The translations under genes and the position numbers were made by a program. A stretch of DNA of 64,000 bases. It comes from Patescibacteria group bacterium. Its GTDB lineage: Bacteria; Patescibacteriota; Minisyncoccia; Phycocordibacterales; UBA12079. Shown here in pieces: positions 1,225 to 9,998 of the stretch (position 1 is its first letter; every line of letters begins with the position of its first letter). The notes under the pieces were generated by a model that ran no database searches, was not told the DNA's origin, and saw only the letters and a list, made by a program, of their open reading frames with translations. Location of the stretch: positions 1,627 to 65,626 of the forward strand of contig JAZDMO010000007.1 of the NCBI GenBank assembly GCA_043800905.1. The letters are read 5' to 3'.

Positions 1225-1536
1225 TTGTTTGAAATGGATAATGACGGAAAAAAATTTGTAAAAATAAGGAAGTGTAATTTTGATGTCGAAATTTCAGTTG
1301 ATGCGATTAAAAAAATAGATAAGTATGATACCTTTTGTTTATTTTCAGGAGACGCTGATTTTGTTTATTTGAATAACTTTTTAAGAAAAAGGGGCAAAAA
1401 GGTTATTTTAATAAAAGGGGGTTATATTACAAGTAAATTACGGAAATCGACTGATTTAATTATAAACGCACAGAAAATCAAAAAACATATCGCTAGAATA
1501 GAACAAAGACCTGACAAGTCAGGTCTTTGTGGATAG
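1225..1536 (+). pseudogene. NYN (LabA-like PIN-fold RNase) domain C-terminal fragment, probable gene remnant
   Basis: 103-aa ORF with a TTG start. It matches the C-terminal half of NYN domains (DTFCLFSGDADFVYLNNFLRKRGKKVILIKG). The upstream in-frame sequence hits a stop at 1201 and no N-terminal NYN half (vfiDGeN motif) is found in any frame. Confidence 0.4.
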
Positions 1537-1678: not shown

Positions 1679-2770
1679 ATGAAAATAGAATTAAATAAGA
1701 TTAAAATAAGGGAAGTAATTGAGGGCTATAAGGATAGTGCTGAGGAGGGTGTTGTGGCTTACAAAGGAAAACTTGATATTCGTCCTAAATATCAAAGAGA
1801 ATTTGTTTATTCAGGAAAACAGAGAGATGCAGTGCTTGAAACTATCAAGCAAGGTTTCCCTTTGAATGTGATGTATTGGATGATACGCGATGACGGAGGT
1901 TTTGAATTATTGGACGGGCAACAAAGAACAATTAGTATTGGGCAATATGTGGCTGGAGATTTTTCTTTAGGTGATAGGTTTTTTCATAATTTAACAAAAG
2001 AAGAACAAGAGCAAGTTTTAGATTATGAATTGATGATTTATTTTTGTGAAGGAACAGACAAAGAGAGATTAGATTGGTTTAAAACAATTAATATTGCAGG
2101 AGAGAAATTAACTGATCAAGAATTGAGAAATGCAGTTTACACAGGATCATGGCTTTCCGATGCTAAATTGAAATTTAGTAAAACTCATTGCGCCGCATAT
2201 CTTTTGGCGAATGACGGAGGAGCTCTTTTGAAAGGTTCTCCAATCAGACAAGAATATCTTGAGACAGCTCTTGCTTGGATAAATAACGGGGAAGTAGCTG
2301 ATTATATGGCAAAACATCAACATAATAAAAATGCTGACGAATTGTGGAATTATTTTCAAGATGTGATTACTTGGGTGCGAAAAACTTTTGTAAATTATCG
2401 AAAAGAAATGACTGGTGTGAATTGGGGAGAACTATATAATTCATTCAAAGATAAAAAACTTAATGCGATAAAATTAGAAACAGAGATTGCTGAATTGATG
2501 CAAGACGAAGATGTCACCAAAAAGTCAGGGATTTATCCTTATGTTTTAACAAGACAAGAAAAATATCTTTCAATCCGAGCTTTTGATGATAAAACGAAAA
2601 GAGAAACTTATGAAAAACAAAAAGGAATTTGTGTGAAGTGTGGAGAGAAATTTGTGATAGATGAGATGGAGGCGGACCACATTACTCCTTGGTATGAGGG
2701 CGGAAAAACAATCACAGAAAATTGTCAGATGTTGTGTAAAGATTGCAATAGGAGAAAATCAGGAAAATAA
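1679..2770 (+). CDS. DUF262 (ParB-like NTPase, DGQQR motif) fused to a C-terminal HNH endonuclease; GmrSD/type IV restriction-like defence nuclease
   Basis: The N-terminus has KYQREFVYSGKQ and LLDGQQRT, typical of the DUF262/ParB-like nuclease-NTPase domain. The C-terminus has the CxxC...DHIxP...N...CxxCN pattern (CVKCGEKF..ADHITPW..ENCQMLCKDCNRRK) of an HNH nuclease. Confidence 0.6.
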   Translation: MKIELNKIKIREVIEGYKDSAEEGVVAYKGKLDIRPKYQREFVYSGKQRDAVLETIKQGFPLNVMYWMIRDDGGFELLDGQQRTISIGQYVAGDFSLGDRFFHNLTKEEQEQVLDYELMIYFCEGTDKERLDWFKTINIAGEKLTDQELRNAVYTGSWLSDAKLKFSKTHCAAYLLANDGGALLKGSPIRQEYLETALAWINNGEVADYMAKHQHNKNADELWNYFQDVITWVRKTFVNYRKEMTGVNWGELYNSFKDKKLNAIKLETEIAELMQDEDVTKKSGIYPYVLTRQEKYLSIRAFDDKTKRETYEKQKGICVKCGEKFVIDEMEADHITPWYEGGKTITENCQMLCKDCNRRKSGK

Positions 2771-3665: not shown

Positions 3666-3785
3666 ATGATATTTGGATATTTGGTTTTTTTAATTAGTAT
3701 ATTATTTTTTTTGAGTTTAATTTAGATGTCAAATTTACTAACATCTATGTTTGACTTTTTTACATCAAAAGATATACTATAAAAT

Positions 3786-4469
3786 ATGAGCAATAAATAT
3801 TCTATTCTCTTAAAAGATTTAAGACTTAAAAAAGGTTTAACTCAAAAGGAATTAGCTAAAAAATTAGGAATTTCTCGTCCTTCCTATATTGCTATCGAGC
3901 AAGGGAAGAGAGACATCACCCTGAATGAATTTGAAAAATTGTCAGGTGTTTTGAGTGTGTCTTTTGATGATTTTGAGAGAGGGGAATTGCCTGATTATGA
4001 AAAATATAAACAAATGATTTTAACCTTTTTGAGAATGAGTGATGGAATAACCAAAACTAAGTTAGCTAAGTTGGTGTATCTTTCTGATTTTGCTTGGTTT
4101 TATTTTAATTTAAAAAGCATGAGTGGAATGCCTTATAGGAAGATTCAATACGGTCCTGTTCCTGATGCTTACTTTAGAGCTATTGATGAATTAGAAAATA
4201 GTGGAAAAATTTTAATTAATTGTAAACAGAAAGATGATAAAGAAATGTTTATTATTTCTGAATCAGAGAGCAATAAAAACCAAAAGTTAGATTCCATTTT
4301 GAAAGATGAGGTTGATTTAATGAAAAATATTTTTAAAAAGTGGAAAAATAAAAAGACAGCAGAAATTGTTAATTTTACCCATAATCAATTGCCGTATTTA
4401 ATCGCAGAAGATGAAGAGATTATTTCTTATGGCCTTATAACTCAAGAAAATCCAGATGAAATCTATTAA
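3786..4469 (+). CDS. XRE-family HTH fused to a Panacea/DUF4065 (SocA/PanA-like) domain; antitoxin-like
   Basis: N-terminal LKKGLTQKELAKKLGISRPSYIAIEQGKRDITLNEFEKL is a Cro/C1-type HTH. The C-terminal ITKTKLAKLVYLSDFAWFY...YGPVPD resembles the DUF4065/Panacea antitoxin domain. It overlaps the next ORF by 14 bp. Confidence 0.55.
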   Translation: MSNKYSILLKDLRLKKGLTQKELAKKLGISRPSYIAIEQGKRDITLNEFEKLSGVLSVSFDDFERGELPDYEKYKQMILTFLRMSDGITKTKLAKLVYLSDFAWFYFNLKSMSGMPYRKIQYGPVPDAYFRAIDELENSGKILINCKQKDDKEMFIISESESNKNQKLDSILKDEVDLMKNIFKKWKNKKTAEIVNFTHNQLPYLIAEDEEIISYGLITQENPDEIY

Positions 4470-4854
4470 ATATGAAGTTGTTTTTAAGCCTTTTGCTGAA
4501 AAACATTTTATAAAAAGTTTTGCGAAAAAATATAAGAATACTTGGGATTTTACTTTTGAGATCATTATAGAAGAATTTAAAAGAATAGATGTTTTGTTTT
4601 TTAAAACTATTGCTGAAATAATTTCTGATCCAAATAAGAGCATCATTATTTGTAAGACTGAGTTTAAAATTGCAGGAACAAAAGATTCAAGACATCGTTC
4701 TGGAAACCGTTGTATTGTGGCTTTGCATAAAGAAATTAATGAAGTTCGGGTTTTACTTGTTTACCACAAGAAAGATTTAAAAGGGAATAATGAAACCGTA
4801 GCTTGGAAAAAAATAATTAAAGAAAATTATCCTGAATATAACGATTTAATTTAA
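4456..4854 (+). CDS. RelE/ParE-superfamily-like toxin candidate; cognate toxin of the upstream Panacea-HTH gene
   Basis: 132 aa, translationally coupled to the upstream gene by overlap. The C-terminal half (KIAGTKDSRHRSGNRCIVALHKEINEVRVLLVYHKKDL) follows the RelE/YafQ pattern: beta strands ending in a basic/His-containing tail. The N-terminus YEVVFKPFAEKHFIKSF resembles the RelE start. Confidence 0.4.
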   Translation: MKSIKYEVVFKPFAEKHFIKSFAKKYKNTWDFTFEIIIEEFKRIDVLFFKTIAEIISDPNKSIIICKTEFKIAGTKDSRHRSGNRCIVALHKEINEVRVLLVYHKKDLKGNNETVAWKKIIKENYPEYNDLI

Positions 4855-4881
4855 ACATTTATTTTGTGTTAAAATCTATCT

Positions 4882-6456
4882 ATGCAAAAGGTTATAGATT
4901 TTATTCAAAAACATACTAACTTAAGTTTTTTTATTTTAGCGCTAGTTTTGGTTTTGGTGATGTATGGTAGTAGTCTAGCCGGCTCTTTTGTTTTTGATGA
5001 TAGGTCTATTATTAGTTATCAAAGTTTTTTTCAAAATCCCGCAAATTGGTGGGAAGTTTTAAAGATGCCCTATTGGGGTTATGAAGCGGGGCTTTATCGT
5101 CCGGTGACAATTTTTTCCTATGGGCTAAATTTTGCTATTTTTGGTTCTGGAGCTTGGAGTTTTCATCTTATCAATATTCTTTTGTATGTTTTTTCGGGTT
5201 ATCTTTTATTTTTGTTTCTCAAAAAAGTTTTATGGGGAAAATATCGCAGGCAGATTGCTTGGGTGAGTGCACTTTTATTTTTGATTTTACCGATTCATAC
5301 CGAAGTGGTGGCAAATATTGTAGGGCGAGCGGAAATTTTTGCCTTAATGTTTTCTTTATTAGGTCTTCTTGAGCTGATTAAAAAAAATCCAAACAAATGG
5401 ATAACCGCTTTATGGTTTTTCTTAGCTATGGGTAGTAAGGAAACGGCTATCGCGGTTTTGCCTATTGCGTTTTTAGTGTGGTTTTCTCGATCTAAGTTTT
5501 TAGAAAAAAAGAAAATTACTCTTCGAGATTTAGAGTTTTATTTTTTCCCAGCTTTTTTGTCGGCTTTTGTTTATTTAAGTTTCCGTTTTCTGATTTTAGG
5601 TTTTTATTTTTTTTCCAATAACGCGAGTCTCGTAGAAAATCCTTTAAAATTTGTTTCTGTTTCAGAAAGAATTTTTACAGCTTTGAAAATTTTATCTATG
5701 TATGTTTATAAAAGTTTAGTGCCCTTCAATCTTTGTTCTGATTATTCTTATAATCAGATTGTAGTTAGTTCTAGTTTTTGGGAAAGCGGAGTAATCGTCG
5801 GTTTTCTGATTTTAGTTTTTTCTTTTGTGGGAATTTTCTATTTTTTTAAAAAGAATTTTAATTTTACTTTGGCGTTGATATTCTTCTTCTTTCCTTTTTT
5901 TATAGTTTCTAATTTATGGAATGCTATCGGGACAATTGCAGGGGAGAGGCTTTTCTTTTATCCTTCAGTGGGTTTATGTATTTTCTTAGGAATATTTTTT
6001 GTTTGGTTGTGGAACTTAGCTAAAAGCGAAAATATCAAAAAAATTTTAATCACTCTATTTGTGTTATTGAGTTTTTTTTATACAATCCGCAGTTTTGACC
6101 GAGCCTTAGATTGGATGAGCGAAGAAAAACTTTTTATTTCTGCAAGTCAGTGTGCACCTCAAAGTGTATTATCTCTTTCTAATTTAGCCACGGTTTATTA
6201 TTTTAAAGGAGATTATGAACAAGCAGAAAAGATTATTTTAGATTCTTATGAAATTTATGATGGTTATACAAAAGCTAATAATAATCTTGGTTTAATTTAT
6301 TGGAGAGGGGGAGAAATAGAAAAAGCTAAAGAGCAATTTTTTAAAACTTTTGAGCACTTTCCGCCCTATGAAGGGGTTTATGAAAATTTAGTTTTATTTT
6401 ATTTATCTCAAAATAATGAAAAAGAAGCTATGAAGTGGTATAAAATAGGTTATTAG
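4882..6456 (+). CDS. polytopic membrane protein with N-terminal GT-C-like (PMT/ArnT-type) glycosyltransferase region and C-terminal TPR repeats
   Basis: About 11 predicted TM helices. The early FVFDD loop motif is typical of GT-C aspartate-rich loops. The C-terminal approx. 120 aa has TPR-like repeats (ATVYYFKGDYEQAEKI, NNLGLIYWRGGEIEKAKEQF). Confidence 0.5.
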   Translation: MQKVIDFIQKHTNLSFFILALVLVLVMYGSSLAGSFVFDDRSIISYQSFFQNPANWWEVLKMPYWGYEAGLYRPVTIFSYGLNFAIFGSGAWSFHLINILLYVFSGYLLFLFLKKVLWGKYRRQIAWVSALLFLILPIHTEVVANIVGRAEIFALMFSLLGLLELIKKNPNKWITALWFFLAMGSKETAIAVLPIAFLVWFSRSKFLEKKKITLRDLEFYFFPAFLSAFVYLSFRFLILGFYFFSNNASLVENPLKFVSVSERIFTALKILSMYVYKSLVPFNLCSDYSYNQIVVSSSFWESGVIVGFLILVFSFVGIFYFFKKNFNFTLALIFFFFPFFIVSNLWNAIGTIAGERLFFYPSVGLCIFLGIFFVWLWNLAKSENIKKILITLFVLLSFFYTIRSFDRALDWMSEEKLFISASQCAPQSVLSLSNLATVYYFKGDYEQAEKIILDSYEIYDGYTKANNNLGLIYWRGGEIEKAKEQFFKTFEHFPPYEGVYENLVLFYLSQNNEKEAMKWYKIGY

Positions 6457-6496: not shown

Positions 6497-7057
6497 ATGT
6501 TTAAAAAAATTATTTATTTGTTGTTAATAATTGTAGGAATAGGTTTTTTAATATTGCTTTGGCAGTATTTTGATTTTTACAATTTCAAACCAGAACAAGA
6601 AATTCTTCTTTCAGAACAAAATGAAAAAAATAATTTAAATCCACAATTGAAAAAAACAATTGAAGATTATTTAGTGACTTTAGATGATTTAGCTTGGCAA
6701 ACAGAGGATGAAACTTCAAATATTTGTGTCTTCGAAAATTTAGATTCAGATAATGAATTATTCCCTTTATCTTTGTGGGTTTATTGTGTTGAATATCGGA
6801 TAGACGAAAGTGGAGAGATAGAAAAATTTAGTGGAGTTTCTTTACCTTTGTTACTGGATTATCCCAATGAACTTTCTTTTTATGATCTAGAAAAATTTAC
6901 TTTTAAGATTCCTCGTGATGGTGCTTTTTACGGCGCTGATATAAGGGAAATTTTTTCAGAAAATATTCAAGAAAAAATTCTTTCGCATAATTCGGTAGAA
7001 ATTTTGGAAACCAAATTGGATGAAAAGATAAAAGCGAAGAATATTTCTGAGGAGTAA
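6497..7057 (+). CDS. hypothetical membrane-anchored/secreted protein
   Basis: 186-aa ORF with a single N-terminal TM/signal-anchor (IIYLLLIIVGIGFLILLW). No recognisable domain. Confidence 0.3.
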   Translation: MFKKIIYLLLIIVGIGFLILLWQYFDFYNFKPEQEILLSEQNEKNNLNPQLKKTIEDYLVTLDDLAWQTEDETSNICVFENLDSDNELFPLSLWVYCVEYRIDESGEIEKFSGVSLPLLLDYPNELSFYDLEKFTFKIPRDGAFYGADIREIFSENIQEKILSHNSVEILETKLDEKIKAKNISEE

Positions 7058-7140: not shown

Positions 7141-7401
7141 ATGAATGGAACAACTTCTTTGGGGGTGGCAGAATTAAACAAAACAAGCTTTTCTGAAACC
7201 TTGTCGGTGGATCTTGGCGACAAGGTTCAGCTAATGGGATTAAAACAGGCGGTTCTTTTCCTCGTGGATGTTTTACGTCGAGAAGAACCTGTTTTAAAGA
7301 AAATGCCGAGCGATTGGCCGGTCCAAGAATTAGAAAGACTATGTTTATCTATATGTAAAAAAATAGACGGGACAAAGGTTCCTCCTGTCGTTAGAAGATA
7401 G
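7141..7401 (+). CDS. hypothetical small protein (86 aa) in a GC-rich islet; a structured ncRNA is an alternative
   Basis: ATG is preceded by the SD-like aggggggttctaca. The segment is clearly more GC-rich than its flanks and contains several stable hairpins (accttgtcg..cgacaaggt; gttcttttcctcg..cgagaagaac). It ends in the intrinsic terminator ggggtggtctacggatcaccctttt at 7418-7444. Confidence 0.25.
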   Translation: MNGTTSLGVAELNKTSFSETLSVDLGDKVQLMGLKQAVLFLVDVLRREEPVLKKMPSDWPVQELERLCLSICKKIDGTKVPPVVRR

Positions 7402-9320: not shown

Positions 9321-9425
9321 TTAAAAAAAATAAAAGAGATCTTGAATTTTATTTTATTATCTTTTTATTTTTTCTTTGTCCACACTTTTATTGTGTTGGA
9401 TCTTTTTTTTGTTATATAATATTAA

Positions 9426-9998
9426 TTGATGGATACTTCTTTTATTCCAAAAAAAGATTTCACTCGTAAAGAAAATAGTAAGAATTATATTGGTTTTGCT
9501 ACCATAGTTTCTATTGTTATTTTTATTGTCGCATTATTTGCTGCGGGAGGGGTTTACTTTTATAAACAGTTTTTAATGGGAGAAATTGAAAATAAATCTA
9601 TTACTTTGACTCAAGAAAAAGGCGGTTTAGATTTAAATGTAATTCAAGAACTTTCTCGTTTCGATGAACGAATAGAATCTGCTACTAAATTATTAAATTC
9701 TCACGTTTCTTTGATTCCTCTTTTTGAATTTTTAGAAGAGAATACTTTAAAAGGGGTTCGTTACGAGCGTTTTACTTTTTCGGTAGAAAAAGGAGGCTTA
9801 GCTCTTGATTTAAAAGGTGAGGCAAGTAGCTACGCAACCGTAGCTTTACAGTCAGAAATTTTTGGAAGTAATAAAAATATTATTGATCCTATTTTTTCTG
9901 ATTTAGGAGTAAGCCCTTCTGGTAATATTACTTTTTCTTTTTCTTCTAAATTAGATCCACGATTAATTTCTTATCGAGATAATTTAACTACTGAATAA
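9426..9998 (+). CDS. pilN: PilN-like bitopic pilus alignment protein
   Basis: Position directly after pilM. A single TM helix near the N-terminus (FATIVSIVIFIVALFAAGGVYFY) followed by a periplasmic domain. No strong sequence signature. Confidence 0.5.
   Translation: MMDTSFIPKKDFTRKENSKNYIGFATIVSIVIFIVALFAAGGVYFYKQFLMGEIENKSITLTQEKGGLDLNVIQELSRFDERIESATKLLNSHVSLIPLFEFLEENTLKGVRYERFTFSVEKGGLALDLKGEASSYATVALQSEIFGSNKNIIDPIFSDLGVSPSGNITFSFSSKLDPRLISYRDNLTTE

Follow-up and report, generated by a model that had tools for sequence, protein, structure and literature searches.

Do the two overlapping genes at positions 3786-4854 of this stretch encode a toxin-antitoxin (TA) system and, if so, how would the toxin act and how would it be kept in check? 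The stretch, referred to below as the window, comprises 64,000 nucleotides of contig JAZDMO010000007.1 from a Patescibacteria group bacterium. In the databases, the product of the first gene (A) is labeled "helix-turn-helix domain-containing protein" and that of the second (B) "hypothetical protein", both from a metagenome-assembled genome (MAG) of the Patescibacteria group. The original prediction, made by reading the sequence alone, was a candidate TA pair in which an antitoxin with a helix-turn-helix (HTH) and a Panacea domain overlaps a RelE-like toxin. Conserved pairing, domain content and the alignment of catalytic residues all support this proposal. We consider it probable that the genes form a PanA/PanT-type cassette, a type II TA system carried on the Patescibacteria chromosome as a module of two genes that stands on its own, in which a HigB2-like messenger RNA endonuclease (mRNase) is held by a three-part, autoregulating antitoxin. 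A single copy of the pair is present in the window, with the following parts.

3786..4469, plus strand: panA-like antitoxin gene (A), 227 amino acids (aa), ATG start, encoding HTH_3, Panacea and an acidic tail (list of open reading frames (ORFs), Pfam, homologs, AlphaFold2 (AF2) model).
3810..3974, plus strand: XRE/HTH_3 DNA-binding domain of A, aa 9-63 (Pfam HTH_3, E 6.9e-17, above the gathering threshold).
4062..4391, plus strand: SocA_Panacea (DUF4065) domain of A (PF13274), Pfam match aa 93-202, AF2 core aa 71-206.
4404..4466, plus strand: conserved acidic C-terminal tail of A, aa 207-227, region of EDEEIISYGLITQENPDEIY, outside the Pfam domain; candidate toxin-neutralizing segment.
4456..4854, plus strand: toxin gene (B), 132 aa, ATG start; predicted RelE/ParE fold, HigB2-like, covered by no existing family model.
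4456..4469, plus strand: 14-bp antitoxin/toxin overlap, with the toxin ATG at 4456 and the antitoxin TAA at 4467-4469 (ORF list).
4654..4770, plus strand: predicted catalytic block of B, beta2-beta4, with K67, K71, the basic, Ser-rich loop SRHRSGN, R85, Y103 and K105 (alignment to HigB-2).

A scan of species-representative genomes detected close relatives of B in 107 of them, and 80 loci were taken from these; these cover the close subfamily only, the close alignment having served as the query. In 79 of the 80 loci, a full-length A homolog (50-72% identity) lies directly upstream of B; the one exception is truncated by a contig end. The junctions of these 79 loci fall into three classes: -14 bp (31 loci), -11 bp (33 loci), and +2 to +6 bp (15 loci). 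Three distant relatives, L085, L087, and L088 (31-35% toxin identity), also retain an HTH_3 plus SocA_Panacea neighbor, with overlaps of 23 bp in L085 (Saccharimonadales) and 20 bp in L088. The pairing of A and B is obligate and goes far beyond chance. In the window, the 14-bp overlap that had been noted between the two ORFs places the toxin ATG inside the final codons of the antitoxin gene (...CCAGATGAAATCTATTAA), and it probably couples translation of the toxin to that of the antitoxin. The surroundings of the cassette vary from locus to locus: the 129 nearest flanking ORFs are spread over 121 Pfam families, none of which is found in more than five ORFs. These variable flanks, and the lack of a conserved third gene, indicate an autonomous two-gene cassette.

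Two loci deserve separate mention. In L087 (L087:921-2143), the HTH-Panacea and toxin genes diverge from a common 125-bp intergenic region, a layout that is unusual among type II TA pairs. In L027 (L027:2501-2893), the toxin gene is interrupted by an in-frame TAA at a codon that encodes Leu (TTA) in its relatives, next to an intact antitoxin gene; this reflects either toxin decay or a sequencing error.

The domain assignment of A, for which a homology search returned 2280 homologs, could be verified directly. An XRE HTH followed by a SocA/PanA-like Panacea domain had been suggested, and both HTH_3 and PF13274 scored above their gathering thresholds, the latter with an E-value of 1.7e-12 and 48.7 bits against a gathering score of 25.7, spanning model positions 1-110 of 113. 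The best-conserved segment of the protein is aa 71-126. Weak similarities in NCBIfam and PADLOC link the Panacea part to the DarG C-terminal region, and the HTH to HipB-type antitoxins and restriction-modification (R-M) control proteins. An AlphaFold model built from 115 homologs, with a predicted local distance difference test (pLDDT) score of 85, divides A into three parts: a five-helix HTH (aa 6-65), a confident alpha/beta core (aa 71-206), and a C-terminal tail (aa 207-227). Foldseek searches of this model against the PDB matched the HTH domain alone, with C.BclI, C.AhdI, and C.Esp1396I (32-35% identity), HipB, SinR, and DdrO as neighbors, and returned no solved Panacea neighbor.

We then asked what B is. 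Its homologs number more than 480 proteins at 60-73% identity, and an exhaustive HMMER search extended the family to approximately 175 clusters at 50% identity, almost all of them stand-alone proteins of about 130 aa. Scanned as a single sequence, B had no match in Pfam, NCBIfam, PADLOC, or PHROGs, and none in the PDB by phmmer; among 87 diverse members of the family, one matched PF06296, with an E-value of 0.014. Its link to RelE/HigB2 was therefore drawn from a profile of the diverse family and from the structure model. The model has the RelE/ParE fold, which is defined by an N-terminal strand, two helices, and an antiparallel sheet of three strands, a C-terminal helix being optional, and the best structural match and all the best sequence matches of B are mRNases (aRelE, YoeB, HigB2, and HigB). 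When the profile of the 87 diverse members was searched against the PDB, the top five sequences were all Vibrio cholerae HigB-2 (VcHigB2; E ~0.02), and the match falls precisely on the conserved beta3-beta4 block. Comparing the B family with VcHigB2 by hhalign, using a sequence identical to 5ja9_C, gave an E-value of 2e-5 and a probability of 77%. Hence, of the RelE/YafQ-like character first ascribed to the 132-aa protein, the RelE fold held up and HigB2-type residues could be aligned, while no Pfam YafQ or RelE match was found.

The alignment also points to an active site. In VcHigB2, residues R51, R64, Y82, and K84 are needed for activity, their alanine mutants being 170- to 3000-fold less active, and the basic beta2-beta3 loop matters as well (Hadzi et al. 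2017, PMC5416850). In the alignment, which is one of sequences and not of superposed structures, the counterparts of these four residues in B are K71, R85, Y103, and K105, so that B displays the RelE/HigB2 pattern of a basic residue in beta2, an Arg in beta3, and a Tyr and a Lys in beta4. Across the 87 diverse members, conservation reaches 90% or more at K67, R85, Y103, and K105. B is thus probably a RelE/HigB2-type toxin that cuts mRNA on the ribosome. Given the weak HigB2 match, the different gene order, and the different type of antitoxin, we regard it, within the superfamily, as a sister clade and not as a member of HigB2.

How A might restrain this toxin is suggested by its tail. The tail has the lowest pLDDT of the model (63-66) and a charge opposite to that of the toxin (net -7.2 and pI 4.05, versus net +7.8 and pI 9.4 for B). 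It carries the motif E-I-I-x-Y-x-L-I-x-x-E-x-P-x-x-x-Y, of which E211, I213, L217, I218, E221, P223, and Y227 are invariant even in partners that are just 40-44% identical, including that of L087. Because the L087 genes are divergent and do not overlap, yet keep the motif, conservation of the tail is not explained by its overlap with the toxin ORF. The acidic tail may therefore be what neutralizes the toxin, and we favor likening it to the neutralizing segments of RelB, YefM, and HigA2, with which it would share being conserved, acidic, and flexible, the last as predicted by the model.

The DNA upstream of the antitoxin gene holds three further elements.

3726..3744, plus strand: putative operator O1, ATGTCAAATTTACTAACAT, an ATGT-N11-ACAT dyad (MAFFT conservation, motif counts).
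3747..3765, plus strand: putative operator O2, ATGTTTGACTTTTTTACAT, ATGT-N11-ACAT, containing the -35 hexamer (tandem pattern, conserved columns).
3751..3778, plus strand: sigma-70-like promoter, -35 TTGACT at 3751-3756, 16-nt spacer, -10 TATACT at 3773-3778 (10/12 consensus match).

We aligned 72 upstream regions with MAFFT and compared their motif content with that of shuffled sequences and of 69 control regions. The intergenic DNA is conserved well above its surroundings at O1 (ATGTCAAnnTTATnAACAT), at O2 (ATGTTTGACTTCTTTACAT), and at the TATACT -10 element. The dyad TGT-N11-ACA is present in 62 of the 72 upstream regions, versus a mean of 1.7 in the shuffles and two of the 69 controls, and the tandem two-site pattern in 38 of the 72 (shuffled mean 0.002; none of the controls). 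Even the distant L085 retains the ATGTCA/TGACAT half-site, in a perfect ATGTCA-N7-TGACAT. In 53 of the 72 regions, a -10-like TAYAMT is located 5-10 nt upstream of the ATG, against 1.6 in the shuffled mean and none of the 69 controls. The distance from the -10 element to the antitoxin ATG is 6-9 nt across loci. In the window, 7 nt separate the -10 from the ATG, from which we infer that the antitoxin mRNA is leaderless or nearly so; more generally, a -10 conserved at this distance leaves no room for a Shine-Dalgarno sequence, the implication being that these bacteria of the Candidate Phyla Radiation (CPR) translate the antitoxin from a leaderless mRNA. The locus thus has the features of an autoregulated type II TA operon as computed here, an HTH_3 domain and putative operators overlapping its own promoter. 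A pair of HTH dimers on the tandem operators would occlude the -35 hexamer and repress the operon, as the controller proteins of R-M systems do.

Put together, these elements suggest the following mechanism. The HTH of A would dimerize and bind O1 and O2, which overlap the -35 element, so that the complex, or the antitoxin alone, represses its own synthesis. A leaderless or near-leaderless bicistronic mRNA would yield the antitoxin, and the toxin would follow by termination-reinitiation at the 14-bp overlap. Direct binding to the Panacea-plus-tail part of A would hold the toxin inactive; in the version we favor, the tail would fold onto the basic RNA-binding face of the toxin or displace its C-terminal helix, comparable to the segments of RelB, YefM, and HigA2. 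Were the antitoxin lost or inactivated, or were Panacea to sense a cue, the freed toxin would enter the ribosomal A site and cleave mRNA there with an active site formed by the beta2 Lys, the beta3 Arg, and the beta4 Tyr-x-Lys.

Several points weigh against parts of this explanation. The Pfam models of RelE, ParE, HigB, YoeB, and YafQ and the NCBIfam models of RelE/ParE leave B unmatched at E-values up to 10, and the sequence link between B and HigB2 is weak (HMMER E ~0.02; hhalign probability 77%). Conservation of K71, which corresponds to HigB2 R51, is limited to the close subfamily. The operators and the leaderless start are predicted from sequence conservation. Concerning neutralization, Ernits et al. 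(2023) reported direct neutralization by the Panacea domain for some PanAs, and neutralization by other domains for multidomain PanAs (PMC10440598). In the HTH-bearing PanA of B. fungorum, HTH-Panacea alone failed to neutralize the cognate MqsR toxin, and Panacea was proposed to be a sensor and not the neutralizer (PMC10440598). The B. fungorum result makes the identity of the neutralizing element of A uncertain.

The cassettes of the scan are hosted overwhelmingly by Patescibacteria, in MAGs labeled Paceibacterota/Parcubacteria, Nomurabacteria, Yanofskybacteria, Taylorbacteria, and Saccharibacteria. Seven loci (L053, L074, L041, L036, L063, L081, and L054) come from MAGs labeled as DPANN archaea (Nanoarchaeota and Pacearchaeota), Verrucomicrobiota, Gammaproteobacteria, and Bacteroidia, with toxins 55-62% identical to that of the window; these could reflect horizontal transfer between CPR bacteria and their neighbors, or mis-binning or mislabeling. 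A tblastn search of phage and plasmid collections found no toxin homolog.

Within the window, approximately 1 kb upstream of the cassette, is the gene of a 363-aa protein (1679-2770, plus strand) with a GmrSD_N (DUF262) domain and a C-terminal HNH nuclease, a type IV restriction-like defense gene. Before it lies a 103-aa ORF (1225-1536, plus strand) whose match to the NYN domain is confined to the C-terminal half (model positions 67-141 of 145); it probably represents a truncated gene or what is left of a pseudogene. Two other loci also have neighbors with NYN and Peptidase_S49, indicating some synteny between the window and a few loci. Downstream, the next gene (4882-6456), encoding a TMTC-like/TPR membrane protein, starts after 27 nt (4855-4881) beyond the toxin stop. 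No intrinsic terminator was predicted after the toxin gene, and transcription may possibly read through into this gene. Two further plus-strand ORFs, 6497-7057 (186 aa) and 7141-7401 (86 aa), had no Pfam match at E-values up to 1e-3.

Among the other loci, some cassettes have surroundings rich in TA or defense genes: a type I R-M system and a Schlafen/AlbA ATPase lie near the cassette in L001 (L001:1-4124), an MmeI-type R-M gene and Mrr in L085 (L085:1-1688), and a Gp49/HigB-like gene paired with HTH_19 as well as a faint YafQ-like ORF in L003 (L003:1-695 and 9369-9626). We considered whether the cassettes might belong to defense islands; the nearest-neighbor scans gave some R-M genes and no dominant family, and we claim no enrichment.

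These surroundings bear on the first of three alternatives, one that is compatible with our preferred explanation: the main role of the cassette would be anti-phage abortive infection, in which Panacea would set the toxin free upon detecting a phage cue. The restriction-type genes beside some cassettes (the GmrSD_N-HNH gene of the window, L001, and L085) and the several R-M families among the nearest neighbors speak in its favor. However, most neighbors are housekeeping or unrelated genes, the R-M-type families being a minority of the 129 flanking ORFs, PADLOC gave no match to the toxin, and the phage and plasmid collections held no homolog. We regard this role as possible, though doubtful.

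A second alternative is that the pair is non-toxic. The RelE-fold protein would then be a factor domesticated to bind ribosomes or RNA, or it would partner an XRE-Panacea transcription factor as co-repressor. The pair is indeed unusually well conserved (60-73% identity) over many CPR lineages with tiny genomes, but that same strong conservation keeps the catalytic residues, the cassette changes its genomic context as is typical of mobile TA modules, L027 shows decay specific to the toxin (the TTA-to-TAA nonsense change), and the architecture is that of validated PanAT systems; we therefore find it quite improbable. Slimmest of all are the chances of a ParE-type DNA gyrase poison in place of an mRNase: the RelE/ParE fold is common to both activities, but the best matches of B, in structure and in sequence, are all mRNases, and conserved residues of B align with the four RNase residues of HigB2, a set that ParE toxins typically lack, which supports a ribosome-dependent mRNase of the RelE/HigB2 type over a gyrase poison.

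With the TA cassette as the preferred explanation, a broader picture can be offered tentatively, as one that we believe to be a good deal less likely than the cassette itself. The 132-aa protein would found an unannotated, CPR-centered clade of the RelE superfamily, one that lacks a Pfam or NCBIfam model; its PanA would combine a RelB-like linear neutralizer, namely the conserved acidic tail and not the Panacea domain, with a Panacea sensor and an XRE repressor; and the module, expressed from a leaderless, autoregulated promoter like those of controller proteins, would be a widespread switch that shuts off translation upon phage or stress signals in ultra-small episymbiotic bacteria. The assignment matters in two respects. 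It would place with confidence a family annotated as "hypothetical", present in more than 100 species-level Patescibacteria genomes, among the RelE/HigB2-type mRNases. It also provides a clean example for the question whether Panacea itself neutralizes or senses, with candidate mutants and DNA sites on offer.

How does the cassette compare with known systems? Kurata et al. (2022) defined PanA/PanT, in which PanA antitoxins bind and neutralize diverse toxins; the partners include MqsR-like, Fic/Doc, toxSAS, PemK, and ParE toxins, and 343 PanAs carry an HTH (PMC8832971). Their Dataset S1 (PNAS 119:e2102212119) also lists "notest" clusters with HHpred matches to the RelE superfamily, the closest to B being T14 (pT15), for which HHpred ranks HigB-2 first (99.7%) and YoeB/ParE and aRelE next. 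In T14, the antitoxin gene precedes a small "hypothetical" toxin, with junctions of -8, -11, -17, +2, +6, and +12 bp; the PanA has an HTH in Ca. Saccharimonas aalborgensis, a TM7 isolate, Cryosericum, Flexibacter, and Pedobacter; and the cluster has 16 entries, for example WP_015641600.1, from a RefSeq-based survey (Dataset S1). Compared by description, B and T14 thus share a Panacea gene upstream of the toxin, an N-terminal HTH (in bacterial T14), a HigB-2 match, and members in Saccharibacteria/Saccharimonadales. They differ in scale: 16 entries there, and here a family whose clusters at 50% identity number approximately 175 and whose species genomes number at least 107, overwhelmingly of Paceibacteria/Parcubacteria-type CPR. 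Named T14 members were not found among the B-family homologs, which list only generic Saccharibacteria/Saccharimonadales names. From the shared architecture, the HHpred-type target, and the Saccharibacteria membership, the B family is probably T14 or a sister of it. If it is T14, the Methanobacteria T14 partners, which have no HTH, would speak against a need for the HTH in neutralization.

VcHigB2 (PDB 5JA8/5JA9/5MJE; PF06296) is only about 20% identical to B, which falls below every Pfam threshold and is approximately 20 aa longer, with longer N-terminal helices. In HigBA2, higB2 precedes higA2, whereas the present cassette is antitoxin-first; HigA2 has an N-terminal disordered neutralizing segment and a C-terminal HTH, whereas A begins with its HTH, followed by Panacea and the acidic tail. 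With RelBE and YefM-YoeB, the cassette shares an antitoxin-first overlapping operon, a basic RelE-fold toxin, an acidic flexible antitoxin C-terminus, and a promoter-overlapping operator, their function here being predicted. Unlike these systems, A uses an XRE-HTH instead of a ribbon-helix-helix or Phd/YefM domain and inserts a 135-aa Panacea between its DNA-binding and C-terminal parts. The HTH of A is closest to controller proteins (C.Esp1396I, C.AhdI, and C.BclI), to which it is 32-35% identical and on which it superposes at 1.3-2.0 Å, and the two tandem dyads of about 19 bp that abut or overlap its own promoter, putative operators in our case, resemble theirs. Many controller-protein genes have leaderless transcripts. 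Those proteins, however, are stand-alone HTH dimers of approximately 75 aa that control R-M genes, whereas the HTH of A is the N-terminal module of an antitoxin.

The literature searched held no description of Panacea modules in CPR bacteria specifically. As to the suggestion that the locus might represent a new PanA-toxin pairing, an HTH-PanA with a HigB2-like toxin, of the same architecture, had already been predicted in T14 in 2022 (Kurata et al. 2022), so this is not a new kind of system. What our analysis adds to that prediction is the assignment of a fold and an active site to the toxin, the scale of the family and its CPR bias, the gap in curated models, the putative operators and leaderless promoter, and the acidic tail of the antitoxin.

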